A DNA stretch of 64,000 nucleotides from Candidatus Woesebacteria bacterium. Lineage in GTDB: Bacteria; Patescibacteriota; Microgenomatia; UBA1400; UBA12108. Positions 10,231-58,524 of the stretch are shown piece by piece (within the stretch, counting starts at the first letter, position 1; each line of letters opens with the position of its first letter). The stretch is taken from assembly GCA_018060845.1 (NCBI GenBank), contig JAGOVG010000001.1:15222-79221 (forward strand), in the 5' to 3' direction. The position numbers and the translations under genes are program-made. Under the pieces are notes generated by a model. It was not told the origin of the DNA, ran no database searches, and worked only from the letters and a program-made list of their open reading frames with translations.

Positions 10231-10497
10231 TTAATAAACCTGGTTGTGAGTGCCTACATCATAAAAAATTAAGATCCCGTCCTTTTCACCATATACGACT
10301 CTGTAATCTCCTGTAATACTAAATGCTCTCTTGCCAATTTTTGTGCCTGTTAACGCGTGATCTCGAATCAGAGGATCTTTAGGATTAGTTTGGAAAAGCT
10401 TGAGACGCTCGGCAAATTTTTTGGATAGACTAGAGCTTGGCAAGATTCTTTTCTTGAAGGATTTCTCAAAATATTTAGAAAATTTAATTTTCTTCAT
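10231..10497 (-). CDS. Type II toxin of the RelE/ParE superfamily, YafQ-like mRNA interferase
   Basis: C-terminus RDHALTGTKIGKRAFSITGDYRVVYGEKDGILIFYDVGTHNQVY matches the YafQ/RelE core (H.L.G....R..H.....L.Y......L...GTH). Confidence 0.78.
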   Translation of the reverse strand: MKKIKFSKYFEKSFKKRILPSSSLSKKFAERLKLFQTNPKDPLIRDHALTGTKIGKRAFSITGDYRVVYGEKDGILIFYDVGTHNQVY

Positions 10498-10840
10498 ACC
10501 CCAATTGCTTCATAAGATCGTCCACACCGGTTGCTGATTTAAAATTTTTACCTTTGGCTAAATCCTGATCCATCTTGTTATAACGATTAATTGCATCTTT
10601 GGAGAGTTTAACGGTGGATGGCTCAGAGTAGACATCGACACGTAGCGTGCCAGAGGAGAAGCGATGCATAATGACCCTCATCGCCTCTTGCAGACTAGAG
10701 AATCCCTGACTTAGCGCCATTTGGTGGGCGCTATCTCTTAGATCTGTGCTTACCGGTATTTGAACAACTGTTCTACTCATATGCATACAATTGTAATGTT
10801 TTGGTATGCGGTTGTCAATATATCGAGAGTTATCCTGCAC
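10484..10840 (-). CDS. RelB/DinJ-type antitoxin (ribbon-helix-helix), partner of the YafQ-like toxin
   Basis: Its stop overlaps the toxin start by 14 nt. RHH-like segment SRTVVQIPVSTDLRDSAHQMALSQGFSSLQEAMRVIMHRF. The true start is probably the internal MHMSRT at about 10786. Confidence 0.62.
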   Translation of the reverse strand: MQDNSRYIDNRIPKHYNCMHMSRTVVQIPVSTDLRDSAHQMALSQGFSSLQEAMRVIMHRFSSGTLRVDVYSEPSTVKLSKDAINRYNKMDQDLAKGKNFKSATGVDDLMKQLGYEEN

Positions 10841-16254: not shown

Positions 16255-17373
16255 TTAATATAAGTTAAAGGTACTAGATTGTTCGTTTTTGTTGCCGCGC
16301 GCGTCAGTCATGCGAACGGCATAAGAGTGAGCACTACCAGAGTTTCCTTTGAAGCAATAGTCCGCTTTTGGTTGAGTAACCCAGTCACCACTATCGATTT
16401 TGTGCTCGATTTTGAGATCTTTTACTTCGGTTACATTGTCGTTGGGATAGTTGAGCAAGAAACAGGTACCATTCTCGTTCCAGTTGTAGGGACCGGAAAG
16501 GGTAAAGTTGGGAGCGATGTTATCGGCAAGATTCTTATAATCTAGCCGTGCTGTATTGTTGGCGTAAGTTGATTCGCCAAGTGCTTTGGCGTTGTTAATA
16601 GTTAACTCTATTTTGTGAGTGCCGATACCAATACTTACATCGCGACAAACATCATAGGTCTTACCTGCTTCTATCTTTGAATACTGCGAGAGCGTACCCT
16701 CTGCTACGACTTTGTCGTCTTCTCTTAAGGTATAACCTAGCTTGCTACCCTCTGTATCCTGATTACTGACGACATGGAAACAGGTGGTTATTTTGGCCGC
16801 CCAGCCTGATTTGAGTTCGTCAAACTCGCCTATCTGGGTACTACTAAATTCTCTATTGATCACACGTCCTGCGCCAGTATTATCATCATAAGTTTGTTTG
16901 ATGTGGGCACTCGGGTTACCAAAACGGACGTCGAGAGTAGCGCTAGATGTTACAGGAGTAGGAGTTGGGGAAGATGTGGTAGATGCTTTTGGGGTGTCTG
17001 TAGCAATGGTCGTGGGTTTACTACTAGCTTTGCTGCTTGGTTTGGCGCTAGTTTTGGGGCTCGCGCTCGCAGTTGCTGTCGCACTAGGCTCCACAGTGGG
17101 ACTAGCCATTACAGAAGGGCTCGGAGAGGGAGTAACACTCGCGACTTCTTTTTTTAGTTTAGAAAAATAGTAGAGGCCAGCAAAAAAAGAGGAGACTATG
17201 ACTACTACTACAACTCCGAGGAGCATGGGGATGATGGGCGAACTACTCTTTGGTTTGCCGAGAGGGAGAACTGGCGTAGTCTCTGGCTGGGTAACTAGAG
17301 GAGGAGGTGTGACAGGAGACTGTTCGGCTGCAACGTCGGGAGTGTCATTTTGATAAGTGTCCATGGACACCAC
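16255..17373 (-). CDS. Membrane-anchored protein with a Ser/Thr/Pro-rich linker and an extracellular domain
   Basis: TM helix at about aa 48-70, then a roughly 90-aa STP-rich linker (SPSPSVMASPTVEPSATATASASPKTSAKPSSK...), then a globular domain. Confidence 0.5.
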   Translation of the reverse strand: MVSMDTYQNDTPDVAAEQSPVTPPPLVTQPETTPVLPLGKPKSSSPIIPMLLGVVVVVIVSSFFAGLYYFSKLKKEVASVTPSPSPSVMASPTVEPSATATASASPKTSAKPSSKASSKPTTIATDTPKASTTSSPTPTPVTSSATLDVRFGNPSAHIKQTYDDNTGAGRVINREFSSTQIGEFDELKSGWAAKITTCFHVVSNQDTEGSKLGYTLREDDKVVAEGTLSQYSKIEAGKTYDVCRDVSIGIGTHKIELTINNAKALGESTYANNTARLDYKNLADNIAPNFTLSGPYNWNENGTCFLLNYPNDNVTEVKDLKIEHKIDSGDWVTQPKADYCFKGNSGSAHSYAVRMTDARGNKNEQSSTFNLY

Positions 17374-18245
17374 TATAGAACAGTTGCGAGTTGTTGTACA
17401 AGGTCCCTGGCTTTACGATTTAATTTGTCTGGCAACATAACCTTGAGTTTGATATAAAAATCCCCCCTACCACTGCTGCGGAGATGTTTAATACCTTTGC
17501 CGGTCAACCTCATGGTAGTGCTAGGCTGGGTACCTGGACGGATCTTGATATCGAGATCACCCTCGAGAGTCGGGATAGTAGTCTCGCCACCAAGGAGCGC
17601 GAGTGTGAGTGGGATCTCATGGAACAGGTAGATGTCGCTACCCTCACGGCGGAACTTGACGTGATCGCGGACACTAATACTTACATCAAATTCGTTGTAT
17701 CTGATACGAGTCCCGTCGTCTGCGCCTGCGGGGATTTTGACAGTATAGGTCTTCCCCTCATGAACAAAACTTTTCTCAACACCATTTACTGCATCCATAA
17801 ACTCGATTGCGAGACTGTAGTGTGGTTTGGGTCTGTACTGATTGCCAAAAGGGTTCTGGCCGCCAAAGAAACTCTCAAAAATATTAAAGGGATCCTGAAA
17901 ACCACCCTGACCCTGTTGACCAAAGAGGTCTTCAAAACCACCTCCAGAGCTGTAGGTATAGGTAAAGGGACCTGAGCGATAGGACTGTCCCCCGCCTCCA
18001 CCACCAAAGCCAGCCGATGGGTCAAAGGCAGCGTGGCCAAACTGATCGTATTTGGTGCGCTTTTCTTTGTTACTTAGGACCTCGTAGGCTTCGTTGATCT
18101 CTTTAAACTTGGCCTCAGCACCTTTGTCTTTGTTGCGATCTGGGTGCCACTGGAGAGCGAGCTTGCGATAAGCGCTCTTGAGCTCGGTCTCACTAGAAGT
18201 CTTGTTTACCCCTAAGATGTCGTAGTAGTCGCGTTTGGTAGCCAT
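17373..18245 (-). CDS. J-domain co-chaperone (DnaJ/CbpA-like, no zinc-finger domain)
   Basis: J-domain DYYDILGV...HPDRN, G/F-rich region, C-terminal DnaJ_C. No CxxCxGxG repeats. Start probably MATKRDYY at about 18245 (the ORF extends to 18281). Confidence 0.85.
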   Translation of the reverse strand: MATKRDYYDILGVNKTSSETELKSAYRKLALQWHPDRNKDKGAEAKFKEINEAYEVLSNKEKRTKYDQFGHAAFDPSAGFGGGGGGQSYRSGPFTYTYSSGGGFEDLFGQQGQGGFQDPFNIFESFFGGQNPFGNQYRPKPHYSLAIEFMDAVNGVEKSFVHEGKTYTVKIPAGADDGTRIRYNEFDVSISVRDHVKFRREGSDIYLFHEIPLTLALLGGETTIPTLEGDLDIKIRPGTQPSTTMRLTGKGIKHLRSSGRGDFYIKLKVMLPDKLNRKARDLVQQLATVL

Positions 18246-18290
18246 ATAGGAGATTATAATGAGATCTGTAGCAGATGACAAGGGAGAGTG

Positions 18291-18599
18291 CTAAGCACTT
18301 TCTAATTCAGCTAAAGTTATGGTCAAAGCTTGGCTAGCTACTTCGTTTAGGAACGCTAAATGGTCTGGACGAGTAGAGAATTCCCACACGTTACCTAGCG
18401 ACATCGCACTGGTAATATTACTAACCAGTCTACCACGTGGGTCACCTTCAGCAGCTTGAGCATGTGCGAGTACCCCATGAAGTAAGAAATTTAGTTCTTT
18501 GAATTTACCAAGAATAATTGCTTGACGATAAACATCAAACCCACTCAAACCTAGTGTGCCTCTGAGTGCATTCTTTTCCTGTTCAGTAAGTATACCCAC
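18291..18599 (-). CDS. Hypothetical protein
   Basis: ORF only, no motif recognised. Confidence 0.3.
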   Translation of the reverse strand: MGILTEQEKNALRGTLGLSGFDVYRQAIILGKFKELNFLLHGVLAHAQAAEGDPRGRLVSNITSAMSLGNVWEFSTRPDHLAFLNEVASQALTITLAELESA

Positions 18600-18672
18600 C
18601 TTACGTGCTAATTAAAGCGGAAACTGGATTAAAAAACTATGTGTCATGAAGATGTATGAAATATCCAAAGAG

Positions 18673-18921
18673 CTATGCGATTGAAGCTAACTGTATCACT
18701 GCCTGAGTAGCACAATTTGGACAAGTGCGAACACCTGTGACCGCATCAACCAACAGCTCAAGGAAGTGCTCGCCACATCTAACTACTCCTGTCTCTGTAT
18801 TTAGAGTTACTGACCCTTTATCAACATGTAAGTCATATCCCTCATAGTTAACCCAGTTAGAAGGATCAGCCGTGAACGTTTTTTCTTTTTTGTCTGCACC
18901 CATGTTTATATTGTATTTCAT
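18673..18921 (-). CDS. Hypothetical small Cys-containing protein
   Basis: CGEHF...CPNC suggests a zinc-ribbon-like fold. ORF only. Confidence 0.3.
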   Translation of the reverse strand: MKYNINMGADKKEKTFTADPSNWVNYEGYDLHVDKGSVTLNTETGVVRCGEHFLELLVDAVTGVRTCPNCATQAVIQLASIA

Positions 18922-19116
18922 CAGTCAATAGTCGTTTCTTGAAACTACAGTTACTGGAATGTGAAAAGTGCAAATATGAATAATAAATTAACTGCAGGTG
19001 AACTATTTGAGTAAGTGGAACTTGCGATTGTGGAAGTAGCTGTAGCTGCTAACTTTAATATTTAATGCGTCATACGTACAGTCGTGTGACACATAGCCTA
19101 AATCAGGAGAAAAAGG

Positions 19117-19692
19117 CTAGCTTCCTGAGTATTGGCAGGTGAAAATTCTTCTTGTAGCGACAATAGAGCTATACCAGTCGTTATCAACTTCTCTTGGTGC
19201 AGGAGTCCATGATTGAGAGTTTACGAGGTCCCACTTTCTTCCGTATTTACCAGAGAATGCGTGTCTTGTGCCTGGCTCGTCCGCAAATACCGTTAACATG
19301 AATAGAGCTCCGTGAACAAGCGAAGGAGAGATATGTTCCAGAAAAGCCTCTAAACTGCTAATAGCTATTAGGTAGTCTTTGGATATTATTGCATGTACGG
19401 GAGTTTTAATCTCTGCATCAAAAATGCTTTTTCTAACTAAGTTCATGTTTGATTTTGCGGGAGTAAGCTCTGTAAGTGAAAATGGAGAAGCGTCGACTGC
19501 AGTAAAAACAAAATTTCCTAATTCATCTACTTTTTTCAAAAGAGAACCTGTACCTGCTCCTACCTCCAAGACATGAGGCACTTCGTTCCGAAACCGCGCC
19601 AATGTGCGTTTTGCGAATGTCTCTACATGAGGCACAAAAGTGGGTAAGATAGCACCCCTATATTGATAAGCAAGGTCATTATATTTTGTCAT
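19117..19692 (-). CDS. Class I SAM-dependent methyltransferase
   Basis: Motif I VLEVGAGTGSL and a post-I acidic residue (TAVDAS). Confidence 0.72.
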   Translation of the reverse strand: MTKYNDLAYQYRGAILPTFVPHVETFAKRTLARFRNEVPHVLEVGAGTGSLLKKVDELGNFVFTAVDASPFSLTELTPAKSNMNLVRKSIFDAEIKTPVHAIISKDYLIAISSLEAFLEHISPSLVHGALFMLTVFADEPGTRHAFSGKYGRKWDLVNSQSWTPAPREVDNDWYSSIVATRRIFTCQYSGS

Positions 19693-19745
19693 CCAGTTAT
19701 TATAGGGTATATATTTTGAAGTTCAAGAACAGCTAGCGGTATCTT

Positions 19746-20204
19746 CTAGACTTTCCTGATCTTTTCGGCGTACTTAAGCCTCTCGACAGGGTCTGCAAGT
19801 TGTTTATCATGCATGTTTTGGTGGAGATCATCATGGTCGTAGCGAGGAAAGATGTGGAGATGATAATGGAAAGCGTGTTGGCCCCCAGCTGGCTCGTTGT
19901 TTTGTAGAAGTGTTATCCCATCACAGCCATACGCTTTTTTCATGGTAATCGAGATTTTTTTGGCAATCGCCAAAATGCGTGAGGCAACGTCAGTGGGTAG
20001 GTCGTAGATATTTTCATAATGTTCGTTTGGGACAACAATTACGTGTCCAGGATTATTTTTGATCCAAAAGGAATTGATAAAGGCGGTCACTGTCTCGTCG
20101 ATATAGACAATATCTTGGAGCCTGAGCAGTGTCCCATCACTCTCTACCCCGTTTACTCCTAGGCAGATGGGACAGGCGTAATCTGTGTCGGCGTGGTTGT
20201 GCAT
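19746..20204 (-). CDS. HIT-family (histidine triad) hydrolase
   Basis: HYHLHIFPR triad; N-terminal CPIC zinc motif. Confidence 0.85.
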   Translation of the reverse strand: MHNHADTDYACPICLGVNGVESDGTLLRLQDIVYIDETVTAFINSFWIKNNPGHVIVVPNEHYENIYDLPTDVASRILAIAKKISITMKKAYGCDGITLLQNNEPAGGQHAFHYHLHIFPRYDHDDLHQNMHDKQLADPVERLKYAEKIRKV

Positions 20205-20208
20205 AAGA
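20166..20208. repeat. Direct repeat A, the native 5' end/start region of the HIT gene
   Basis: gatgggacaggcgtaatctgtgtcggcgtggttgtgcataaga. It recurs at 22781-22823 (about 87% identity) and as a partial copy at 21261-21304. Confidence 0.7.
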
Positions 20209-20212
20209 ATAT

Positions 20213-20518
20213 TTACCGTCCGATAATTGGCTCACCGATATATCCACCTCTAATATCTGTCTGAAATAACCATCCAATAATACCAAATGCTTCGGATGGA
20301 AATGTAGAATGAAATTCTTTGCCGTTAATAAGCCCGTTCAGGACCATGCCTGTTAGAACAAGCACCTTCTCATCTATATAAACAACTACTTCTTGTCCAG
20401 GTAGCGCTTCGATTATATCGTTGAGCTTAATAACTCCATGAGAAACCATTCCGCGGAGATCCCCCGAGCGATCAAACCTATATTCCGCAACAGACAAACT
20501 TGTTCCTCTTATAGACAT
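20213..20518 (-). CDS. Hypothetical protein (in cassette 1)
   Basis: ORF only. Confidence 0.35.
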   Translation of the reverse strand: MSIRGTSLSVAEYRFDRSGDLRGMVSHGVIKLNDIIEALPGQEVVVYIDEKVLVLTGMVLNGLINGKEFHSTFPSEAFGIIGWLFQTDIRGGYIGEPIIGR

Positions 20519-20576
20519 GTTGAAGATTATATACCTGACAGACTAAGGTGTGTTTAACTGGCTTAACACTTAATTA

Positions 20577-21196
20577 TCATTTTATTCCGATAGCAATTGC
20601 TCTGAGTAGAGGTTCCTCGTACCAATCATCATCTGCCTTACTAGGCCACCATAAGAGTAGTTCGTCGTCGAATAATATCCCTGAACGCGATGCAGCCGTT
20701 CTTATTTGATCAAATGTTGTATGTGTGTATTTTTGGTTTGGGGGTGTTTTTTCATTAGGTCCAACAATACTTGGAATCGCGTTAAATACACACATAATTA
20801 TTCCAGGTGAACGTAAAACCCGACTACAGCTCGAGAAGAAAGTTCCCTTATTGGGTAAATGCTCGAGAACATCTTTAATATGTATTATGTCAAAGCTACT
20901 TACAGAGAGTTGTGAGTCTTCGAGTGTAGAGTAAATTTTAGGGGATGTAGTCATGCGCATAGATGCTGGCGAAGGATCGAGGACTGTTACATGAAAACCT
21001 TCTTCTGAAAGGCCTTGGCATAGATGCCGTTGCCAGAGCCAATATCCAGTAATGAGGGAGACTCTACTGAGAGTATCTGCCCAGCTCTCTCAACCAATGC
21101 GCTTATTACTGCATGATATGTTCCCACTGTTTGTGGTGCTTTTTCGTAGCTATGTAGATTGCCTTTTTCGCTATATTCAATATAACTTGTCATCAC
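20577..21196 (-). pseudogene. Class I SAM methyltransferase split into two ORFs by a frameshift
   Basis: ORF 20987-21196 carries motif I (LDIGSGNGIYA). ORF 20577-20960, in another frame, carries the C-terminal part (DIIHIKDVLEHLP). Confidence 0.6.
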
Positions 21197-21260
21197 GAAA
21201 TTTTAACAATATTATGTCAAAAATCATGTTATAGGACTACGTTAATAGCATTTTGCTGTC

Positions 21261-21304
21261 AATGGCGAGATTGGCGGAATTGGTCTTGGCGTGGTTGTGC
21301 ATAA
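21261..21304. repeat. Direct repeat B, partial copy of the HIT 5' end
   Basis: ttggcgtggttgtgcataa is identical to the core of repeat A. Read on the minus strand it gives a remnant MHNHA... reading frame. Confidence 0.5.
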
Positions 21305-21362
21305 CCTTGTTCGATTATAGCATTTTGTTATAATTAACCGAATAAAATACGTACGTCGTAAA

Positions 21363-21926
21363 TTGTGGTATAAAGAAAGTGATATGAGTAATAAACATAA
21401 GTTAAGCACAAGAGACTACATCTTATATCTCTTAAACAAGATAGAACTTGCCAAAGTTGGAAAGATCAGACTTAACAAACTCGCATTTTTTGTTGAGTTT
21501 GGGTACATATATAAGACTGGTAAACAGTTGTCGGAAACAGAATACGCTGGAATTAACCTAGGTCCTGTTATTAACGACTACCGCAAGATCCTAGCACAGA
21601 TGGAGAAAGATGGTGATGTGAAGATGGAAGGCGATAGGATCGTACCGTTGAAAAATTCGAACTTAATACCAGATGAAGTTAGGGTTGTGATTGATCCGCT
21701 GATTGCACGATTTGACGCTCAGCCAGATCGGCTGCTGGTAAGCATGTCCCATGCCACCGATGCTTACAAAATAACAACTATAGACGAAAAAGTTATGGGC
21801 AAGATAATCGATAAATCACTAGCACCACTTGAGACTGCTTTCTTCGATGAAAAAACTATAGTGGAAGACTTACAAGATCTGCCAAGTATCAATAGAAATA
21901 AGTTGGTTCCGTATGAGTTTGGATGA
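21363..21926 (+). CDS. Panacea-domain (DUF4065/SocA-like) putative antitoxin
   Basis: KIRLNKLAFFVEFGY matches the Panacea domain core (LnKLLYfad). Overlaps the downstream toxin-like gene by 14 nt. Confidence 0.68.
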   Translation: MWYKESDMSNKHKLSTRDYILYLLNKIELAKVGKIRLNKLAFFVEFGYIYKTGKQLSETEYAGINLGPVINDYRKILAQMEKDGDVKMEGDRIVPLKNSNLIPDEVRVVIDPLIARFDAQPDRLLVSMSHATDAYKITTIDEKVMGKIIDKSLAPLETAFFDEKTIVEDLQDLPSINRNKLVPYEFG

Positions 21927-22230
21927 TGCGTATCGAGTCTTAACTGATGACAAGTTTAATAAATGGATCAAGAAAAATTTGCCGACACAGCTGAAGAAAG
22001 TATTAGATAAAAAGATCGCGTATTTAGCATCTAACCCACAACATCCTAGCCTGAATACAAAGAAGTATGGTGTTAGTCAACAAACACTAAAGCAGTCCCA
22101 AGTGGATGAAATCTGGGAGTTTCGTATTAACATGAACTTTAGATGTGTCTATTATGTAGTGCACTCTGAGAAAACAATTATCCTGGCATTTGTGGGCAAC
22201 CACGAAGATGTGAAAGTTCGTTTTGAGTAG
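21913..22230 (+). CDS. RelE/ParE-superfamily-like toxin partnered with the Panacea antitoxin
   Basis: C-terminus EIWEFRINMNFRCVYYVVHSEKTIILAFVGNHEDV follows the RelE/ParE pattern (lwElR...yRiiY.v....i.il.vg.H.d). Confidence 0.6.
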   Translation: MSLDDAYRVLTDDKFNKWIKKNLPTQLKKVLDKKIAYLASNPQHPSLNTKKYGVSQQTLKQSQVDEIWEFRINMNFRCVYYVVHSEKTIILAFVGNHEDVKVRFE

Positions 22231-22249
22231 CTTGTGGTAGTATGCGATT

Positions 22250-22768
22250 ATGCAAAAAATACTAATTACCGGCATGGCAGGATCAGGAAAATCAACTGTA
22301 TGCGTTGAGTTAAAACGCAGGGGCTATAATAGCTATCCGATTGAAGACATAGATGGAATGTTTAATATTTATCATAAAGGTACTCGGACATTTTTTGAAG
22401 GCTATAGCAACCTTAATCCGGATGATATAGAAAATGCTGAATGGCTTTGTAACACCAATAAGTTACTGGAACTCATACGTGCCCAAAAGAGTGAGGTTGG
22501 ATTCTACTGTGGGGTCTCGTCAGACATGAACGAGCTATTTCCTTACTTTGATAAAGTATTAGTTCTTAAAGCTAGCGCAAATACGCTTAACGAGAGATTA
22601 ACGAATAGAGAGGGTACTGACGATATAGGTAATAACCAATCTGGTAGAGATATCATTTTGAAGAGGAAGGAACTCTGGGAAAAACAAATGGAGGAAAAGG
22701 GGGCAATATTTATCGACGCCAACAGTTCATTGGAAAAAGTCGTTGAAGATGTGTTAAGAAATATTTAG
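22250..22768 (+). CDS. Small P-loop NTPase/kinase-like protein
   Basis: Walker A ITGMAGSGKST. Size and layout fit the nucleoside/shikimate/zeta-like kinase fold. Last gene of cassette 2. Confidence 0.55.
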   Translation: MQKILITGMAGSGKSTVCVELKRRGYNSYPIEDIDGMFNIYHKGTRTFFEGYSNLNPDDIENAEWLCNTNKLLELIRAQKSEVGFYCGVSSDMNELFPYFDKVLVLKASANTLNERLTNREGTDDIGNNQSGRDIILKRKELWEKQMEEKGAIFIDANSSLEKVVEDVLRNI

Positions 22769-22780
22769 AAATCCGAGGGA

Positions 22781-22823
22781 GATGGGACAGGTGTAGTCTG
22801 TGTCTGAGTGGTTGTGTATAAGA
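22781..22823. repeat. Direct repeat C, HIT 5' end copy with ATG mutated to ATA
   Basis: gatgggacaggtgtagtctgtgtctgagtggttgtgtataaga. On the minus strand it reads IHNHSDTDYTCPISLG, compared with the native MHNHADTDYACPICLG. Confidence 0.7.
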
Positions 22824-22871
22824 GTTCTGCGGGACTTATAGCTCTGGTAATGGTAAAATTCCTGACTATAT

Positions 22872-23195
22872 ATGGCAGATGTAGAAATTCTTCATAAGTA
22901 CGGGATAGTTATGGGAGACGTTACATACGACCCAATAAACCGCTATGCACACCTCGGCCGGTTAATTGTGAACCCTGTAATCCAAAGACGTAACGGAGTT
23001 GGAACTCTTCTTCATAAAATGTTTGTTCAAGAAGCTCTTACGTGGGGCAATATCGCTATTGTTACTTTTCTTGATCCAGACAAAAAGAGTGACATGGAAT
23101 CGACTCGAATTTTTCTCGAAAAGTTAAAATATACGTTGTTTGAATACCAAGAGAAACAAATTTATCGAAAATTTATTGATTGGTCATCCGAATAA
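22872..23195 (+). CDS. Small GNAT-like N-acetyltransferase
   Basis: Motif A-like RRNGVGTLL. Confidence 0.5.
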   Translation: MADVEILHKYGIVMGDVTYDPINRYAHLGRLIVNPVIQRRNGVGTLLHKMFVQEALTWGNIAIVTFLDPDKKSDMESTRIFLEKLKYTLFEYQEKQIYRKFIDWSSE

Positions 23196-23222
23196 AAAGC
23201 CCCCTTGCGGGGGCTTTTATAC
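23194..23222. terminator. Bidirectional Rho-independent terminator between convergent genes (GNAT and dnaK)
   Basis: AAAAAGCCCCC-ttgc-GGGGGCTTTTAT; perfect 7-bp GC stem flanked by A-tract and T-tract. Confidence 0.75.
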
Positions 23223-23294
23223 TTTAGTAATCCTTATTTCTTATCTCCCCACTTTGTCCCGCACAGACGGGACTTCGTTAGGGGCACGGCCACC

Positions 23295-25211
23295 TTACTT
23301 TTCATCAACTACTTCCCCTTCTTCTGCGCCCTTGTCTCCAGACTTGGGTTTTTGTCCTTCGGTGGACTCAGGACCTGTCTGAGCGGAGTCAGACGCGGCT
23401 GCGGCTTTGTATAGGCGCTCGCCGTATTTAGAGAGAGCGTCGGAAGCTTTTTTGAAGGCTTCATCGATACTTTCGACTGTGGCATCAGCCTTGTCTTTGG
23501 CTTCTTTTAGAGCGCCAACGGCTTCTTCGATCTCTTTCTTTTCGTCCTCGGTGATTTTGTCACCGGCGTCTTTGAGAGTCTTTTCGGTCTGGAAGATGAG
23601 AGAGTCTGCCTCATTCTTCTTTTCGACTAGCTCCTTTTTCTTTTTATCTTCTTCGGCGTGGAGCTCGGCCTCTTTTTTCATGGTCTCGATCTCTTCGTCA
23701 CTAAGGTTAGTGGCGTTTTGGATAGAGATCTTTTGCTCTTTGCCAGTCCCTTTATCTTTGGCACTCACGTGGAGGATACCGGATGCATCGATGTCAAAAG
23801 TGACCTCGATCTGAGGGATCCCACGAGGAGCGGGGGCGATTCCATCTAGGACAAAACGACCCAGACTCTTGTTATCCGCGGCCATCGGGCGCTCACCCTG
23901 CAGGACATTGATCTCGACCTGGGGCTGGTTGTCGCTCGCGGTACTAAATACCTGACTCTTACTGGTTGGGACTGTGGTATTACGCTCAATAAGAGCTGTC
24001 CTGACACTACCCATGGTCTCGATACCGAGAGTCAGAGGAGTGACATCTAGCAAGAGGACATCGTTAACTTCGCCACCTAGGATACCGGCCTGAATGGCGG
24101 CACCTACGGCAACAACCTCGTCGGGATTAACCCCCTTATGAGGTTCGCGACCAAAGAAGTCGGCGACAGCTTTTTGGACAGCTGGCATGCGAGTCTGGCC
24201 ACCTACGAGGACGACTTCGTCGATATCGCTGGCTTTGAGTTTGGCATCGGCTAGACATTTTTTGACTGGCTCGATGGTCTTTTTGATTAGGTCATCAACT
24301 AGTTCTTCTAGTTTGGCGCGGCTAATACTCAGCGTTAGATGTAGTGGTGTGCCATCTTTGCCCTGGGTGATAAAGGGCTGGTTGATCTCGGCGCTACTAC
24401 TACTAGAGAGCTCGATCTTGGCTTTTTCGGCGGCGTCACGGATCCTCTGCAGGGCCTGTTTATCGCCCGATAGGTCGACTCCATTATCTTTTTTGAACTC
24501 GGCCACGATGTAGTCGACGAGTTTGTGGTTAAAGTCGTCACCACCGAGGAAGGTGTCGCCGTTGGTGGCTTTGACCTCAAAGACTCCATCGCCAATTTCG
24601 AGGATACTAATATCAAAGGTTCCACCACCGAGGTCGTAGACCGCGATTTTGCCTGATTTCTTTTTGTCGAGACCGTAGGCTAATGCTGCTGCGGTTGGCT
24701 CGTTGACGATACGCTTTACTTCTAAGCCGGCGATCTTACCTGCTTGCATGGTAGCTTGACGCTGAGAATCGTCAAAGTAGGCTGGGACGGTGATGACAGC
24801 TGAGCTTACTTTGGTACCTAGATAGGCTTCGGCATCGGCTTTGATCTTGCCCAATATCTTGGCACTGATCTCTTGTGGAGTGTAGACTTTGCCATCTACT
24901 TTGACTCCTGCCATATCGTCTTTGCCTGCTGCGACCTCGTAAGGGACCTTTTTGATCGTATCTTTGACCATGGCATCGCTCATTTTGCGACCCATTAGGC
25001 GTTTGACACTATAGATAGTGTTCTTACTATTTAGGACCATTTGGTTTTTGGCGACCTGGCCAACTAAGTTTTTGATCGGCTCGACGATACTGGGGATGGT
25101 GTTTCCACCCTCAGCACTAGGGATTACCTTGGCTTTGCCACCCTCCATGACTGCGATACAACTATTAGTGGTACCTAGGTCGATACCGATTGTTTTTCCT
25201 GTGTTAGTCAT
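23295..25211 (-). CDS. dnaK: Chaperone DnaK (Hsp70)
   Basis: [22 protein letters not shown], full NBD and SBD. Confidence 0.97.
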
Positions 25212-45297: not shown

Positions 45298-45675
45298 TTA
45301 TCTAATAGGGAAGACGACAGAGTAGAGACTACTCCCTTTTTTGTTAATCTGGATCTGGATATCCTGAACACCTAGGTAGTCAGCTAATACCTTCCTCATA
45401 CGACTGGGTGCAAAGTGACCACGACTACGAAAGGTGGCGATCATGACAGTACCCCTTAGTTCCTGATCTACTATCTCTCCGGCTATCCCACCCTCACGCA
45501 ATATGTTGGTGAGGAGATAATTGTTGTACCAGGTGGCATAGGTATCAGCGACGTTCAGGAGTGTGCGAGAACGTAGCAGGCGCGCCACGTACTGGAGTAG
45601 GTCATTGGTGTGAAACAAAATGTATGCGACCACAGTCGCTAGCCAACTAATTATGGTGCTAGTTATATACTTCAT
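45298..45675 (-). CDS. Hypothetical protein with N-terminal TM
   Basis: ORF with 4-nt overlap to the TfoX-N gene. Confidence 0.35.
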   Translation of the reverse strand: MKYITSTIISWLATVVAYILFHTNDLLQYVARLLRSRTLLNVADTYATWYNNYLLTNILREGGIAGEIVDQELRGTVMIATFRSRGHFAPSRMRKVLADYLGVQDIQIQINKKGSSLYSVVFPIR

Positions 45676-45989
45676 TTTTTTGGTGGTAGGTTATTGTAAG
45701 TAATCGTTATTAGTTGGCAGAGCTTACCCCGGTCATTAATTATTTCTTCTGCCACTTTGATATGTGCCTTGGCACCAGGGTATGGGACCCCCTCTGCATA
45801 ATCAGCATCCAGTAATGTCTTGCCTTGATCCGTTATTTTGACAAAAAGAGTGTCATCACAGACGAGGGCAATTACACGATCTAGGTAGTAGAGAGCGTAC
45901 TCGCCAAACATTTTGCGCGATCTAATGTGAGGCACTAGACTCGATAGCTGATCAACAATATATGTGATTGTGGTTGGGTTACTAGACAT
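45672..45989 (-). CDS. TfoX/Sxy N-terminal-domain protein (competence-regulator-like), no C-terminal domain
   Basis: RKMFGEYALYYLDRVIALVCDDTLFVK is the TfoX_N signature. Confidence 0.68.
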   Translation of the reverse strand: MSSNPTTITYIVDQLSSLVPHIRSRKMFGEYALYYLDRVIALVCDDTLFVKITDQGKTLLDADYAEGVPYPGAKAHIKVAEEIINDRGKLCQLITITYNNLPPKK

Positions 45990-45992
45990 AGT

Positions 45993-46760
45993 TTAAGACT
46001 CCTTTTTTAAGTAGTATTGTCTCTCTGACTCTGATAACTTCTCAATAGCATAGCGCAGCATAGTCCTGGGCATGACGCTTGCGTACTCATTAAGAAAGTT
46101 AAGGAGTGTCATTTTATCTTTTTTGCCCATTTCGCGTAGCATCCACCCAACGGCTTTGTGGATTAGATCATGGGGATCGTGGAGCAAGACTTTGCTTAAT
46201 TTGAGCGTGTCTTCAAATACTCCTGCTCTAATAAAAGCAAATGTTGCCATAATACTGATCCGACGCTCCCATAAATTATCTGAACTGGCTAGCTGATATA
46301 GGACGCCCCGCGGTCGAGATAGTAGGTAGTCACCCACGATCTTCGGCGTGCTCAAATCGACTAGGTCCCAGTTGTTGATAAACTGACGATGTTCTAGGTA
46401 ATATTCATATATTTTAATTTTTTCTGTATCTAATTTAGTCTTCTCATACTTTTTGACTAGCATTAGTAGAGCGACTAAACGGATTTCGTGGTATGGACTA
46501 CTTATTAATTTATCTATGTTAGCTAAATCTAGCTCAAGATAATATTTGCTAACCAGCTTGTGGGCTGTAGGTACCATAATACCTAGGAACTGATCCCCCT
46601 CCCCGTACTGACCAGGCCCAGTCTTAAAGAATCGGCCGAGGATGGCCGCACGTGCTTGATCAGCAAGAGAATGTAGCTCTTTGGTTAGCTCATTTACGCT
46701 CATATAACTATTGTAGACTAGAGAATGTATAATGAGGCTATATGGCGAAGAAACATACAC
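45993..46760 (-). CDS. AlkD/AlkC-like DNA alkylation repair glycosylase (HEAT-like repeats)
   Basis: All-helical, with the family motifs FFKTGPGQYGEGDQFLGIMVP and WDLVD. Confidence 0.72.
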   Translation of the reverse strand: MYVSSPYSLIIHSLVYNSYMSVNELTKELHSLADQARAAILGRFFKTGPGQYGEGDQFLGIMVPTAHKLVSKYYLELDLANIDKLISSPYHEIRLVALLMLVKKYEKTKLDTEKIKIYEYYLEHRQFINNWDLVDLSTPKIVGDYLLSRPRGVLYQLASSDNLWERRISIMATFAFIRAGVFEDTLKLSKVLLHDPHDLIHKAVGWMLREMGKKDKMTLLNFLNEYASVMPRTMLRYAIEKLSESERQYYLKKES

Positions 46761-47080
46761 ACCACAAGTCCCCTTTTTCGGATTACTTTAATGCACTATC
46801 TCGGATAGATAAGGGTAAGAGATATTCGGATGAGTACGGGTCGATCCTGATATTGTCACTAGTTGAAGAGGTGGGCGAGATCGCCCGTGCCTACCTGGCC
46901 GAGCACGGTCGAAAACCCAACAACAAGGCAGCTCAGCGTGATGAGACCTATGAGCAGGAGCTCGGTGACCTGGTGGTGACCATCCTACGATTTGCCAGAA
47001 CTAAGGATATTAATCTAGACGAATACGTCAAGCGTACACTCGCCAAGATAGAGGCACGTAAGAATAAGCCAAAAGAATAG
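46742..47080 (+). CDS. MazG-like nucleotide pyrophosphohydrolase (small, single domain)
   Basis: LVEEVGEIARA...ELGDLVVTILRFA is the EExxE/D MazG motif set. Confidence 0.75.
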   Translation: MAKKHTHHKSPFSDYFNALSRIDKGKRYSDEYGSILILSLVEEVGEIARAYLAEHGRKPNNKAAQRDETYEQELGDLVVTILRFARTKDINLDEYVKRTLAKIEARKNKPKE

Positions 47081-47093
47081 GGATATTCCCTAT

Positions 47094-47549
47094 TTATTTC
47101 CCTTTGCCGTAGCTAGCTTTGACCTGATAGAGGAGGTAGAACGAGATAACGGTCATGACGAGTGAGCCGACATTAAAATATTGGAGAGTTGAGAGGAGTG
47201 AGAGCAGCTGGGAGTAGTACATGAGCCTCCAGCCTTTACCCCTGCGTGCAAAGAGTGGCTTTACTGCCATAGCAGATAAGACTACCTGCGCAGCACCAAC
47301 TGCCCAGAAGAGCCAGAAGATGCCAGTGCGTGAGCCAGCGATCCAGACGAATGGAGTAGCGATAGCACCGAGCCCAAAGACAGCCAGGAGCGCTGGGATG
47401 CCGACGATCGCACCGATTAGGGCGAGATAAGGGGCAACAGAGACGATGAAATCTTTTCCGCCTTTTGGTAGGACTGGGGATTTTTTAACTAGGTAATCAC
47501 TGAGTACTTTGTCTAGTGCGTCGGTGTATGTTTTCATATATGTCTCCAA
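47094..47549 (-). CDS. Hypothetical 4-TM membrane protein
   Basis: Hydrophobicity only. Confidence 0.45.
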   Translation of the reverse strand: METYMKTYTDALDKVLSDYLVKKSPVLPKGGKDFIVSVAPYLALIGAIVGIPALLAVFGLGAIATPFVWIAGSRTGIFWLFWAVGAAQVVLSAMAVKPLFARRGKGWRLMYYSQLLSLLSTLQYFNVGSLVMTVISFYLLYQVKASYGKGK

Positions 47550-47624
47550 GGTGTTTATCTAATAGATACACTATAACAAATTAATCAATGCTGGGTAACT
47601 AGAGATAACTCTAAGTCTTATAGT

Positions 47625-48050
47625 ATGTTATACTCTTACCTTATGATTAACTATGAGCTATATACCCATACTCAGACTCCTGAACTAGTGACGTATGTTC
47701 TGCTCCCTTATACATGGACCGAAGACATTACCACAACTAGCTTTGTTCAGGCTAGGCGTGTCGCATCTGCTCTAATGTGTATTGATGATCTTAATTCAGT
47801 GAGTGAGGGAAATGGAGCTGGGACAGCACTACTAAATGCTATAGCTGTTTGGGGCATGAGTCGTGGACTGGATAAAATTACGGGTAGTGTAGTAACTAGA
47901 GATGGATTTTACGAGGCCCTCGTGAAATGGTACGGAAAACGTGGACTCAGTGTGCAGAATGGGTGGCTAGTGGGCGAGACAAGTGAAGTACGAGACATGA
48001 CTGCAGAAATATTGCACGCACATAACGTAGAGTACAAGATTGCTACTTAA
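47625..48050 (+). CDS. Possible GNAT-like acetyltransferase
   Basis: Weak motif A-like GNGAGTALL. Confidence 0.35.
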   Translation: MLYSYLMINYELYTHTQTPELVTYVLLPYTWTEDITTTSFVQARRVASALMCIDDLNSVSEGNGAGTALLNAIAVWGMSRGLDKITGSVVTRDGFYEALVKWYGKRGLSVQNGWLVGETSEVRDMTAEILHAHNVEYKIAT

Positions 48051-48133
48051 ATATCTCAGAAATAAAAAGGGTGGTAATATCTAGCTTTACAATGTTTGGC
48101 CATAGGTTTAGGAATTGCATATGTGTTTACCAA

Positions 48134-48161
48134 CCCCCTCCCTACAATCGCAGGGAGGGGG
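48134..48161. promoter_or_regulatory. Very stable GC hairpin (10-bp stem CCCCCTCCCT/AGGGAGGGGG) at the left edge of the AT-rich island
   Basis: Lies between convergent genes. No adjoining U-tract on either strand. Confidence 0.4.
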
Positions 48162-48170
48162 TGTTAGGCC

Positions 48171-48368
48171 TTACTTACTCCTGTTATATGGAGATTGATT
48201 TGTTGGCTTGAGTGAAACACCTATATGACCAGCTCTTGACTGAACTGCGTCTGGTGTCCGACCAAGCTTAAGACCGATGACTCTAGTAGGCGTATTCTGC
48301 CTTACTAGTGATCTAAGTTGTGACTCCTGTGAAGAAGTCCAAGGTTTATTGTTATTTTTGGGTGACAT
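48171..48368 (-). CDS. Small GcrA-N-terminal-like HTH protein
   Basis: WTSSQESQLRSLVRQNTPTRVIGLKLGRTPDAVQSRAGHIGVSL follows the GcrA N-terminal pattern W-T-xE-x3-L-...-IA-x2-LG-x-T-x-NAV-x-gK-x-hRLGL. SD GGAGCT precedes the start. Confidence 0.45.
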   Translation of the reverse strand: MSPKNNNKPWTSSQESQLRSLVRQNTPTRVIGLKLGRTPDAVQSRAGHIGVSLKPTNQSPYNRSK

Positions 48369-48530
48369 AATAGCTCCTTATATTTGCCTTCTACCCACCA
48401 GAGAGAGCTTGCTAAAAATTTAATAGTGTAGAATACTAGTCTTGATGTAGAACTGAGAGGAGTGAGTAATTCATTCCTCTCTTTTCGTATTCTGTCGCCA
48501 ATTGTTTTTTGGCATGTTTAATCCTTTGGC

Positions 48531-48558
48531 TACAAAAACCTCCCTTAACCGGGAGGTT
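48531..48558 (-). terminator. Rho-independent terminator ending the hsdR-to-ORF150 operon
   Basis: On the minus strand: CCTCCC-ggttaa-GGGAGG followed by TTTTTGT, about 135 nt downstream of the ORF150 stop. Confidence 0.55.
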
Positions 48559-48692
48559 GCCTTGTTCCCGCTTAAGCGGTTGTGGTGATTAAGAATTACT
48601 TCGCGTCATCATAACTTGAAAACTATCCTAACGAATATTACACATACCATGCAACCACTAGATCTATATCAAAGTAGTGCAACTTAATTTCT

Positions 48693-49145
48693 TCATCCTG
48701 AAATATCTACAATCGCTTTAACTCTGTTTTTGTCGACCCTGTGTATCTGGATGGCCTTACGATTGGCAGATATTTCCATTGCGAGGCGATTAAGGATGTA
48801 CATACGGATATTTTTCTCAGTCATATCCTCATATTTCACAGTCGTAACTAGGTAATTATTTATAGTTTGTACATCTTCAACAGTCACCTTGAAATGTTTT
48901 GAGGTTGTATTCTCATAATCTAGAGCATTATGAATGAGTCTAGCGTTGTACCAGTTGCCATACGACTCAAATACGTTATATGTGAATTCTCCGGGGAAGA
49001 GGTCGTTTAGTGATTTAAGAAAGTCAACAGTTTTTCGAAGAACTATAGACTTTGCTAGTTGAAAAACCTGCTCTATGAATCTAAATACCCAAACCATTGC
49101 ATCCACTATTGGATCACTAGGCTCTTTAATCTTCTTTTTCTTCAT
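48693..49145 (-). CDS. Hypothetical protein (last gene of the R-M-linked operon)
   Basis: ORF with 20-nt overlap to the FtsK-gamma gene. No recognised motif. Confidence 0.4.
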   Translation of the reverse strand: MKKKKIKEPSDPIVDAMVWVFRFIEQVFQLAKSIVLRKTVDFLKSLNDLFPGEFTYNVFESYGNWYNARLIHNALDYENTTSKHFKVTVEDVQTINNYLVTTVKYEDMTEKNIRMYILNRLAMEISANRKAIQIHRVDKNRVKAIVDISG

Positions 49146-49479
49146 ATTTTCTTAGAACATCTCTAGGTTTTACTCCCTCTGCCTTACTAACGACCCCTTC
49201 TTTTTCTAGTTTTTCCATAATCATTGCTGCTTTGTTGTATCCATGTGACATACGGCGTTGTAGGTATGACACACTGGCTTTGCCTGCGTCAGATATGACT
49301 CTCCATGCCTCGTTATATTCTTCATCAGCTATCGTAGTAAAGGGATTTGCGTAAGGAATATCAATTTCATCTTCATCTTCTCTTGGCTCGGTATAAAGTA
49401 AATAAGCCACCATCTTCTCGAGGATTAATACACGATTGGTTAATTCATCTACTTGCTTCATTAATTGATCATCGCTCAT
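49126..49479 (-). CDS. Standalone FtsK gamma-domain (winged-helix) protein
   Basis: C-terminal 58 aa EEYNEAWRVISDAGKASVSYLQRRMSHGYNKAAMIMEKLEKEGVVSKAEGVKPRDVL align almost residue-for-residue with the FtsK C-terminus at 345-2480 (ASTSFLQRKMSLGYNKAARIMDQLETAGVVGQQEGAKPRTIL). Confidence 0.75.
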   Translation of the reverse strand: MSDDQLMKQVDELTNRVLILEKMVAYLLYTEPREDEDEIDIPYANPFTTIADEEYNEAWRVISDAGKASVSYLQRRMSHGYNKAAMIMEKLEKEGVVSKAEGVKPRDVLRKYEEKED

Positions 49480-49487
49480 ACGCCTCC

Positions 49488-50163
49488 TTAGAATGGTAAA
49501 TCACTCTTAGTATTCCGATACCTTTCATTAACATGCCGATACTTACAAAACCGGCAATCCTCATTCTCATTGGGGATTGGGCCAGTGATGAGCGTATTGA
49601 TCTCATCCATAAATTTGGTGAAAGATGACTCGTCGATTGGGACTTCGAGCCACTTGGGTGGGAAAGTTAGAGTGGCAACTCCATTATCGAACTTTACCTG
49701 ATCGGGATACATGACAATAAGACCCATTTGGGTGATGCGAATTGGTTCGTCATGCCTGGGATGTTCCATGGCGAATTTGTAGGAATAGAGCTGGGTCTTA
49801 TATTTATCGATTTTGTCCACATGTGGCTGAGATAGCTTAAAGTCTACTAAAAGATATGTACCATCTCGACGTTTAACTAGTAGGTCATATTTGCCTTTGA
49901 GATACAGCTCTGTGCCGGGTATAACGATAGACTCCACAAATCCCCTCCTGCTTCTCAACGATTCCCTCTGGTAGACTTGGGGATAGGGCACGCAACTCTT
50001 TACCAACTAGCGTTCCTTGTAAGCGAGTATTGATAGCTGAGAAGATCCCTGGCATGGGCATTTGAGGCCTCATAACCTGATCGTGGACTTTCATCCAATA
50101 ACATCGTTTACACTCTTCATATAAATAGGCAAAATCTGATGGAGAGAGTTTGCATTGATGCAT
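49488..50163 (-). pseudogene. Cas4-like/RecB-family PD-(D/E)XK nuclease with Cys cluster, interrupted by a 1-nt frameshift
   Basis: N-terminal ORF has SPSDFAYLYEECKRCYW (Cas4 YCPRrfY-type). C-terminal ORF, in another frame, has GKYDLLVKRRDGTYLLVDFKLS (D...D/ExK), TQLYSYKF (QxxxY) and a C-terminal CRFC. The two frames would join by deleting one C in the CCCC tract at 49942-49945. Confidence 0.65.
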
Positions 50164-50165
50164 AG

Positions 50166-50759
50166 TTATGAGTTCTTCTCTCGTATCTCTTCCTCTAAGG
50201 ACTTCAATGTAGATTCAAATAGTGTCATAAATTCGTCAGTTTTCCCATTAGTTGCTCCGTACAATTCCATCCAAAGCCCTTCTGCATCTTTATTGCCGAT
50301 TCTATTAGTCGGATCGTCCCATTTAGATTCGTAAAAGATTTCAAAATCTATTGCATATCTTTTTATCAGGTCTAGGATTGATTGAATGTATTTAGTTTTA
50401 TCTTTTCCCCATAAGGCGTCGGCTCTGAGCTTTAATATTCTGAGATGACTATTAGTTTCTATTACGTCATTAAGTCTTGCTGCATGTTCACTGTAATGTG
50501 CATCACGTTGTTTTTCCACATCCTTCATAATATCTTGTTGATATCTATAAAATCTTCCTCTCGCATGTATGAGCTTTTCTTCTATCTCATACACACATTC
50601 CATAATTTCAAGTGATAATTTGTATTCATCTTGACCTTTTACTTGCTTCTTCCATGTTGACAACCCTTGATACGCTATCCATACTCCAAAACCTACTAGG
50701 AGAGAGTTAACTAATTCTAGATTTAACATGTTTAATAGACATGGTAGATTAATTAACAT
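50166..50759 (-). CDS. Hypothetical protein with N-terminal TM helix, directly downstream of hsdMS
   Basis: Lies 4 nt after the hsdMS stop. N-terminal hydrophobic helix (LVNSLLVGFGVWIAYQGL), then a charged helical domain with no recognised motif. Confidence 0.45.
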   Translation of the reverse strand: MLINLPCLLNMLNLELVNSLLVGFGVWIAYQGLSTWKKQVKGQDEYKLSLEIMECVYEIEEKLIHARGRFYRYQQDIMKDVEKQRDAHYSEHAARLNDVIETNSHLRILKLRADALWGKDKTKYIQSILDLIKRYAIDFEIFYESKWDDPTNRIGNKDAEGLWMELYGATNGKTDEFMTLFESTLKSLEEEIREKNS

Positions 50760-50763
50760 ATCA

Positions 50764-53163: not shown

Positions 53164-53165
53164 AT

Positions 53166-55742: not shown

Positions 55743-55898
55743 AGCGGCAACATCTCAGATTGCTCGGGCAACTTTGAAGATGACAATCGCCAACTTACTG
55801 TGAAGGATGTTGTTTCTAAAGATGAGGTTGGCCTAGCCTGCCACAAATGATTTAGGAGATCAGTGGCAAATGCTTCAGTACTAACAGCCACAGCTGAC

Positions 55899-55922
55899 CA
55901 TTTTGTCGGCGTCGACAAAATG
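55899..55922. promoter_or_regulatory. Palindromic operator-like site 1 upstream of hsdR (CATTTTGTCGGCGTCGACAAAATG)
   Basis: 24-bp inverted repeat with one mismatch. It sits inside a roughly 50-nt unit (TGACCATTTTGTCGGCGTCGACAAAATGATATTTGAC) that is repeated 90 nt downstream. Confidence 0.6.
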
Positions 55923-55988
55923 ATATTTGACGGGTTGATCGCTCCTTTTAAAGGATTCTTATGCACACAATATAGAGGATTGACCAAC

Positions 55989-56012
55989 CATTTTACCGGC
56001 GCCGGTAAAATG
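55989..56012. promoter_or_regulatory. Palindromic operator-like site 2 (CATTTTACCGGCGCCGGTAAAATG), a perfect 24-bp palindrome
   Basis: Second copy of the unit (TGACCAACCATTTTACCGGCGCCGGTAAAATGGTTTTTGAC). Half-site CATTTT(A/G)(C/T)CGGCG. Confidence 0.6.
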
Positions 56013-56031
56013 GTTTTTGACTGATTATCTG

Positions 56032-56286
56032 CTATTTTCTTGGATTTAGTATTAAGAACTCTAGAGCTCTCCACAGAGTACCAATAAAGCCGCTGTCTGT
56101 ACATTTTGCGGCACGCATTAGAGACTCGACGGCATCGTGTTGTGGAGGGAGACTAACCCCAGGTTCTGAGGGTACGCGAGTCTTTAACTCGTGCTCTAGG
56201 AGCTGTCTCGCAAAACAAAAACCTAACCAGGTACAGGTATCTGGATTTGGACATGTTGGTGAAATCTTAAATTCTGATTTGGTCAT
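56032..56286 (-). CDS. Hypothetical small Cys-containing protein
   Basis: ORF only; it lies downstream of the 285-aa ORF and immediately before (higher coordinates) the palindromic sites, which sit between it and hsdR. Confidence 0.3.
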   Translation of the reverse strand: MTKSEFKISPTCPNPDTCTWLGFCFARQLLEHELKTRVPSEPGVSLPPQHDAVESLMRAAKCTDSGFIGTLWRALEFLILNPRK

Positions 56287-56301
56287 CTATGTTGCTTGAT
56301 G

Positions 56302-57159: not shown

Positions 57160-57195
57160 TCTTGGTATTATAGGATAAATGGCTGAAATTTCAAG

Positions 57196-58503: not shown

Positions 58504-58524
58504 ACCTCATGTTACACCACGATT

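Follow-up and report, generated by a model that had tools for sequence, protein, structure and literature searches.

The start of a HIT-family gene is a recurrent insertion point in the stretch of Candidatus Woesebacteria DNA analyzed here, and older 5′ ends of this gene are left as co-oriented vestiges upstream of the one in use. The stretch (64,000 nucleotides of contig JAGOVG010000001.1, assembly GCA_018060845.1, positions 15,222 to 79,221; hereafter, the window) matches contig JAHZTO010000034.1 of assembly GCA_020049755.1, and its closest relatives are labeled Microgenomates or Woesebacteria. Repeat-finding on the window returned one family of three direct copies, A, B, and C, with A taken as the reference. 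Signed positions are counted from the HIT ATG, which in copy A occupies 20204-20202 on the minus strand. The gene and its copies are as follows.

19746-20204, minus strand: HIT-family gene, intact, 152 amino acids (Pfam HIT, 1.8e-16); its 5′ end is the insertion point
20157-20208, minus strand: copy A, the functional HIT 5′ end, in use, −4 to +48
21255-21306, minus strand: copy B, span of the repeat family, 62% identical to A without gaps
21190-21306, minus strand: copy B, full module of about 115 nt (ATG box, decayed HIT stretch, and leader)
21238-21194, minus strand: 45-nt promoter-like leader of B, ending at the ATG (21193) of a methyltransferase gene
22772-22823, minus strand: copy C, the outermost vestigial HIT 5′ end, −4 to +48

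All three copies lie on the HIT strand in the same orientation. C is identical to A at 45 of 52 positions (87%), with ATG changed to ATA and Cys14 to Ser. A and B share an exact 17-mer, GGCGTGGTTGTGCATAA, located at 21288-21304, the ATG end of B; with up to three mismatches allowed, the window contains three occurrences of this 17-mer where 0.10 would be expected, and none of 100 shuffles attained three. In a gapped alignment, B consists of a decayed HIT 5′ end that extends to about +63 and then the 45-nt leader. The initial annotation, made from the letters alone, had described three HIT 5′ ends in one orientation, with C about 87% identical and its ATG turned into ATA; the repeat search, the shuffles, and the alignment bear this out, since the similarity survives proper alignment and self-comparison of the window returns all three copies. 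Their extent had been underestimated: the repeat proposed as about 43 nt is 52 nt in A and C, and B, correctly recognized as a partial copy but placed at 21261-21304, is longer when gapped and carries the leader in addition. Chance is ruled out by the shuffles, together with a scan for the HIT 5′ box over ~1 Mb of loci against shuffled controls. Comparison of the DNA upstream of A, B, and C detected no similarity beyond about −5, which rules out a longer repeat taking in upstream DNA, and the DNA between the copies is unrelated to that upstream of them, which rules out a tandem duplication. HIT is intact at A, and direct repeats of its own end bracket the inserted DNA, as attL and attR would.

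The same scar recurs elsewhere. Searching with a 52-nt probe, with a HIT N-terminus profile against six-frame translations, and with a scan for the 14-nt box (ATGCACAACCACGC), we located additional HIT 5′ fragments on seven other contigs:

L002: ATG to +48
L004: ATG to +75
L007: ATG to +40
L056, the same as L067 (Uhrbacteria): −13 to +117, 98% identical to the intact copy
L065 (a 1.9-kb metagenome contig): three fragments, each to +63
L074: ATG to +18
L075: ATG to about +45

Counting B and C, the total comes to 11 fragments in 8 contigs. Every one of them starts at the ATG (−13 to 0), lies upstream of HIT, and is on the HIT strand, with inner ends at +18, +40, about +45, +48 (twice), +63 (four times), +75, and +117; the fragments are thus fixed at the gene boundary, variable at the inner end, and co-oriented. 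Control searches with the HIT middle, the HIT C terminus, three parts of dnaK, the dnaJ N terminus, and the grpE C terminus gave no convincing extra copies, the only second matches being two marginal ones (E = 0.09 and 0.075). The HIT start is therefore a specific hotspot.

Most fragments lie only a short distance from the gene on their left. The gap from the left-hand gene to the fragment is 1, 2, 6, 11, or 13 nt in five cases, like the native spacing between HIT and its upstream gene, which in the relatives often ends only 2 to 16 nt before the ATG. To the right lies either a leader of 22 to 180 nt or the 3′ end of a convergent gene. Cargoes measure 0.3 to 2.6 kb across the eight arrays and, in L065, consist of single ORFs in one orientation separated by the 63-nt fragments.

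The inner ends of the fragments are worn down by small deletions. Where C meets the adjoining kinase gene, the window lacks 66 nt that are present in L004, and the gap is flanked by the imperfectly repeated CTCGGAG and CCTGAGC; L074 and L075 have the leader of the upstream gene ORF101 in common, yet their fragments are 18 and 45 nt long. Variable inner ends alone consequently do not exclude a fixed original site. Such erosion also lends something to the idea that no insertion took place at all and that the copies are remnants of duplicated HIT paralogues trimmed by deletion, or else chance or assembly artifacts, as does a duplication in L077 (5850-6000), where an apparent second HIT start is a scaffolding artifact with an N-run between duplicated sequences. 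We find this idea hardly credible. Only 5′ ends survive, in 11 of 11 cases, with no middle or 3′ remnant found; the DNA between copies is unrelated to the upstream DNA and differs between genomes; and C differs from A at seven positions and is thus not an assembler k-mer repeat. Independent assemblies agree, moreover, which rules out an assembly artifact for the window (the same structure in the NCBI and Logan assemblies, L060 and L061) and for L056 (the same structure in the independent JGI contig L067). The L077 case is nevertheless a caution for automated surveys of such repeats.

The copies delimit two cassettes within a variable island, whose genes and conserved flanks are the following.

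17373-18281, minus strand: dnaJ, conserved right flank
20213-20518, minus strand: ORF101, with its stop codon 8 nt before the HIT ATG
20577-21196, minus strand: S-adenosylmethionine (SAM)-dependent methyltransferase pseudogene, frameshifted (N part 20987-21196, C part 20577-20960)
21384-21926, plus strand: Panacea/SocA-like antitoxin (Pfam SocA_Panacea, 2.8e-7, above the cut-off; NCBIfam SocA, weak)
21913-22230, plus strand: ParE/RelE-like toxin (Pfam ParE_toxin, 4e-3; TIGR02385 RelE_StbE, 4.6e-4; both below the cut-offs)
22250-22768, plus strand: P-loop kinase, AAA_18/dNK-like (Pfam), with its stop codon 3 nt from copy C
22872-23195, plus strand: short GNAT-like ORF (weak Acetyltransf_1), divergent from C, between the array and dnaK
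23295-25211, minus strand: dnaK, conserved left flank

Between A and B lie ORF101 and the methyltransferase pseudogene, on the HIT strand; between B and C lie the antitoxin, the toxin, and the kinase, on the opposite strand, the first two overlapping by 14 nt. This is the content that had been read from the letters. Pfam recognizes Methyltransf_11/23 on both methyltransferase pieces, and the intact 200-aa homologues of L076 and L002 match frames 1 and 3 by tblastn; Pfam agrees with the other three assignments and NCBIfam, by weak matches, with those of the antitoxin and toxin; the Pfam match of the toxin is also weak. ORF101 has no Pfam match, and its structure prediction was unusable (mean pLDDT, 43.6). 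With HIT, it moves as one block of patchy distribution among relatives: the nucleotide identity with L074 is 86% over 733 nt that begin at the ORF101 start and run into HIT, and it is 73% for L075 and 77% for L076.

In the relatives, HIT homologues are likewise located between dnaK and dnaJ, the gene order being hrcA-grpE-dnaK, a variable stretch with HIT, and dnaJ. G+C is 0.35 to 0.43 in the island versus 0.47 to 0.55 in dnaK and dnaJ. Among about 20 relatives with the same flanks, the gene sets of the dnaK-HIT and HIT-dnaJ intervals differ in every genome, so that different genes lie between the same conserved flanks without mobility genes. An empty site exists in one lineage (L078-L082), in which the dnaK stop codon, a terminator, and the TACAAT-N6-ATG of HIT follow one another in 77 nt in total. 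The two relatives closest to the window by dnaK amino acid identity, L004 (96.7%) and L074 (96.5%), each hold part of its array: L004 has a HIT fragment, the same kinase block abutting it (85% nucleotide identity), and then a different methyltransferase before HIT, while L074 has a HIT fragment followed directly by ORF101-HIT. The window is a composite of these two relatives. The comparison with related genomes proposed in the initial annotation thus recovered both empty and differently filled sites, and these, with the scars in seven other contigs, uphold its suggestion of repeated insertion into the HIT 5′ end by elements that each carried a replacement 5′ end. The HIT-dnaJ interval (18291-19692) is as variable between relatives as the other, and despite this no gene-fragment scars were seen in it.

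The direct observations are that the repeats exist, that they recur, that they are specific to the HIT start, that empty and alternative states occur, and that no recognizable recombinase was seen; from these, we infer a recombination route and an order of events. On balance, the route is probably an integrase-free serial displacement, in which homologous recombination anchored in HIT combines with rare illegitimate joins. A, in use, and B and C, the vestiges, would be successive 5′ ends of one HIT gene, placed at the edge of a flexible island that would have opened between dnaK and dnaJ in a Microgenomates/Woesebacteria-type lineage of the candidate phyla radiation (CPR). New blocks would enter exactly at the HIT start, bringing an intact HIT 5′ end or a whole block of upstream gene and HIT, such as ORF101-HIT. 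Because the incoming block brings a 5′ end, HIT would stay whole, and the previous end would be pushed outward and decay. The process would begin with the uptake of DNA from relatives and one homologous crossover inside HIT; in rare founder events, the other join would be illegitimate and fall within the first ~120 nt of the resident gene. A cassette lying between a HIT fragment and HIT could then be copied into any HIT-bearing genome by double homologous recombination, so that arrays would grow and be exchanged, which would also explain the identical fragment lengths within an array, and later small deletions would erode the inner ends. A TfoX_N gene and PilN/PilO-like genes are present, and published work describes Patescibacteria as competent and as having kept homologous recombination genes (PMC12455944).

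Several observations weigh against an integrase-free route. Only the HIT 5′ end leaves fragments, although dnaK, dnaJ, and grpE also border variable DNA, and homology-driven exchange does not obviously predict this. Every fragment-cargo junction that we examined is intergenic and leaves whole genes, an outcome that would be rare under random illegitimate joins. Breakpoints recur at +48 (the window and L002; about +45 in L075) and at +63 (three times in L065, and in B of the window). The same 45-nt leader follows a fragment before three unrelated ORFs in two genomes and looks like a defined cassette junction. The distant Uhrbacteria contig (L056/L067) carries a fresh event, its 130-nt repeats being 98% identical, and the genomic context there is a different one. 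Finally, among the matches listed in the collection scans, no donor-recipient pair was found for a founder event, in which microhomology at the illegitimate join might be seen.

The specificity for the HIT start with strict co-orientation (11/11), the whole-gene cassettes, the recurring breakpoints, the shared promoter-like module, and the scar in a distant lineage would all suit a site-specific cassette system akin to integrons, tycheposons, or cis-mobilizable elements (CIMEs), with its recombinase encoded elsewhere in the genome or supplied by a helper element. Circular cassettes would then carry a HIT 5′-like site, the newest would lie next to HIT, with B and C as former attachment sites; the single-ORF, one-orientation layout of L065, with its 63-nt spacers, fits well. 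Partial copies of a target gene between stacked elements are, besides, a known signature of repeated integrase-mediated insertion (tycheposons, bioRxiv 10.1101/2020.12.28.424599). We nevertheless regard such a system as possible but unlikely, in view of what a search for its parts returned.

Among the genes called over most of the window (61819-64000 unscreened) and its unannotated ORFs, none encodes a recombinase that Pfam recognizes. The cargoes of the window and of the seven other arrays hold no tyrosine or serine recombinase domain, no integrase or integrase remnant was seen inside the elements of any of the eight arrays, and neither intI nor Phage_integrase was found next to the arrays in relatives or among the neighbors conserved across them. 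Two IUPAC patterns for the HIT 5′ end had no match in 2.9 million IMG/VR viral contigs, plasmid collections not having been searched. The cargo side of the junctions and the cassette ends show no conserved motif, and the inner ends spread from +18 to +117. The repeats fold no better than shuffles (z = −0.8, −0.85, and −0.25 for the three modules and +0.08 for HIT); the alignment fold came with a positive covariation term and no covariation support, and no attC-type hairpin was found. There is a weak 9-bp stem at +40 to +64, whose edges coincide with the breakpoints +40, +48, and +63. An Rfam E-value scan of 18.5 to 23.5 kb for RNA families gave only noise.

Three candidate signs of a defined site were considered and dropped. 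A structured attC-like site was rejected because the folds are not significant; for a dif/Xer-like site, GTTGTGCATAA resembles a XerC arm by eye, but A, B, and C do not share a conserved second arm; and the synonymous conservation of the HIT 5′ end, taken as a sign of a site at the DNA level, is only modest (0.31 versus 0.46). The integron-like serial insertion site of the initial annotation, with a dedicated recombinase acting on a defined sequence, therefore finds no support, given the missing recombinase, the variable ends, and the lack of a motif, a fold, or viral copies. Its observation that no integrase is visible holds for the genes called over most of the window and for all cargoes, and its second wording, a decayed insertion array or recombination hotspot, describes the locus better.

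The leader of B was also considered as an expression signal. Aligned without gaps and in the same register, it matches the DNA after fragment f1 of L065 at 33 of 45 positions (73%) and that after fragment f3 at 29 of 45, the next best match elsewhere in the window being 24 of 45; a leader profile run over ~1 Mb of related loci gave no further copy. It reads CCTATAACNTGATTT...TAAAAT-N6-ATG, with the layout ATGATT (TTGATT in L065), 16 to 17 nt, TAAAAT, 6 nt, and the cargo ATG, and the spacing is the same after f1 and f3. The three cargoes that follow, namely, the methyltransferase of the window, ORF154 of L065, and a third ORF, also from L065, are unrelated. It might be argued that the copies are kept mainly as expression signals, module B being a promoter for the next gene and the array a by-product of its re-use. 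The −35/−10-like pair with its constant spacing, the box and leader of B conserved while its middle decayed, and the TACAAT-N6-ATG of the empty site, which suggests leaderless starts in this lineage, are consistent with such a role. As an account of the array, however, it is quite improbable: C, without its ATG and facing the 3′ end of a convergent gene, cannot act as a promoter module; the promoter reading was made by consensus, while a promoter scan did not list the site and found no excess of promoter-like sites; and retention as a signal would account for the keeping of copies, not for their origin.

In a bolder proposal, the HIT 5′ repeats would be the recombination sites of an undescribed CPR cassette-capture system, functionally analogous to an integron, in which the ~63-nt gene-start sequence would act as attC and attI and a short promoter-bearing module, like those of B and of f1 and f3 in L065, would drive expression of each captured ORF; recombination would be carried out by an unrecognized recombinase or by the host machinery, exploited through portable homology. 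We regard this as speculative and unlikely.

Integrase-free serial displacement, the explanation that we favor, has a close parallel in the T6SS (type VI secretion system) effector-immunity arrays of Vibrio cholerae, displaced-end arrays that were attributed to homology-facilitated illegitimate recombination (Kirchberger 2017, PMC5361080) and that their authors likened to Rhs orphan 3′ regions and to orphan contact-dependent toxin (CDI) modules (PMC5361080). In both cases, variable modules pile up beside the conserved part of a gene, and the older modules keep fragments with a fixed boundary and variable ends; both lack an integrase, and homologous anchoring with an illegitimate join, followed by spread through homologous recombination, would serve for both. 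Here, the displaced end is the 5′ and not the 3′ end, a mirror image, and a housekeeping-type HIT hydrolase with unrelated accessory cargo in a CPR host replaces toxin-tip variants with an immunity gene.

Stacked elements at gene ends form a second point of comparison, including the integrase-less CIMEs that are remnants of integrative and conjugative elements. The tycheposons of Prochlorococcus are integrative elements stacked at tRNA genes (bioRxiv 10.1101/2020.12.28.424599). As in these systems, direct partial copies of the target stand between tandem insertions, arriving DNA repairs the gene end, each newer insertion displaces the older ones outward, and decayed remnants lack mobility genes. 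Our arrays differ from them in that no integrase was seen in any of the eight, the cargo is only 0.3 to 2.6 kb, the target is a protein-coding 5′ end, and the repeat length is variable. With integron arrays, they share short and often single-ORF cassettes, a repeated site of ~50 to 115 nt, and a serial build-up, the layout of L065 being very similar. Unlike integrons, they lack intI, attC-type imperfect palindromes, and a fixed crossover point; the repeat comes from coding sequence, one cassette of the window is a three-gene unit in the opposite orientation, and the boundaries differ between genomes.

Integrase-free exchange via conserved flanks is known from the minimal mobile elements of Neisseria (discussed in PMC3787668) and from replacement flexible genomic islands (PMC4033161). 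These resemble our locus in the differing gene sets between the same flanks, the absence of mobility genes, and hosts thought to be competent. To our knowledge, no description of them mentions partial copies of a flank remaining between cassettes in order and in one orientation. Flexible islands, displaced-end arrays, and partial-target repeats are thus already known, while our literature search returned no description of ordered vestiges of a housekeeping-gene 5′ end that delimit unrelated cassettes in CPR genomes without a recombinase.

Patescibacteria have tiny genomes, and their routes of gene gain are little understood. The HIT locus represents a concrete and repeatable way for them to acquire accessory genes and accumulate them in series (toxin-antitoxin pairs, kinases, methyltransferases, and unknown proteins), with the first codons of a conserved gene inside a heat-shock operon as the entry point. 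Should no integrase be involved, the locus shows how portable homology can arise from a short stretch of a conserved gene and make any gene a transformable cassette; with a recombinase, it would be a new cassette system. Either way, the ordered vestiges form a readable history of insertions, testable in metagenome reads with the empty-site and alternative-cargo relatives.

The following observations were made along the way. The heat-shock operon is split into hrcA-grpE-dnaK and dnaJ by ~5 kb of variable genes, among which HIT occupies a middle position (17373-25211 in the window; also L002-L012 and L069-L082). Relative to the window gene (19746-20204), the first 150 nt of HIT are 82 to 96% identical among close relatives (L002-L005, L069, L074, and L076; dnaK, 94 to 97% at the amino acid level) and the remaining 290 nt are 74 to 83% identical, a bias that could reflect frequent exchange of the 5′ end; codons 2 to 4 (CAC AAC CAC) are almost invariant at synonymous sites. 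ORF101 keeps an invariant C-terminal half (NGxINGKEFHS...FGIxxWxFQTDI...YxGEPIIG) and is constantly located 5 to 8 nt upstream of HIT (20213-20518 in the window; L074, 6046-6351; L075, 2188-2496; L076, 7352-7597), and the constancy of this block suggests a functional partnership with HIT. The GNAT-like ORF, missing from all relatives compared, is 107 aa long with an acetyl-CoA motif, RRNGVG, near residue 40 and may lack its N-terminal third.

Among the other contigs, the gene before the first fragment of L065 (1176-1861) belongs to the 8xMP family of octameric membrane proteins (5.7e-30) and is preceded by a 68-aa ORF; PADLOC gave no match for the L065 cargoes. The nominally intact HIT of L056 (1724-2206, corresponding to L067 8561-8079) is frameshifted in an A8 run, where the upstream fragment has A7 and is in frame, and it is preceded by only the C-terminal 40% of a HAD hydrolase that stands at full length beside HIT in L031, L057, and L022; two independent assemblies agree. 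In L076 (7320-7345), CAGCGTGGTTGTATAAT lies ~13 nt upstream of the ORF101-like start; read as its reverse complement, this sequence looks like the HIT ATG box short of 2 nt and so may have been left by a fragment that was inverted. Two further candidates were rejected: position 8915 of L031 as another fragment, being inside a 261-aa ORF, and the "RmlD" gene of L002 as a gene truncated at a junction, its N-terminal part being just upstream and the break internal.

Elsewhere in the window, the stretch from 45672 to 62789 looks accessory, with no recombinase among its called genes up to the unscreened end. It includes the TfoX_N gene (45672-45989), small PDDEXK_1 and FtsK_gamma ORFs (49126-49937), a type I restriction-modification system (50764-55742), a PIF1-like helicase (57196-58503), and a 1097-aa ORF. 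A second small toxin-antitoxin-like pair, an 88-aa YafQ-family toxin with a 98-aa partner, is located at 10231-10780, between core genes upstream of rpsO.

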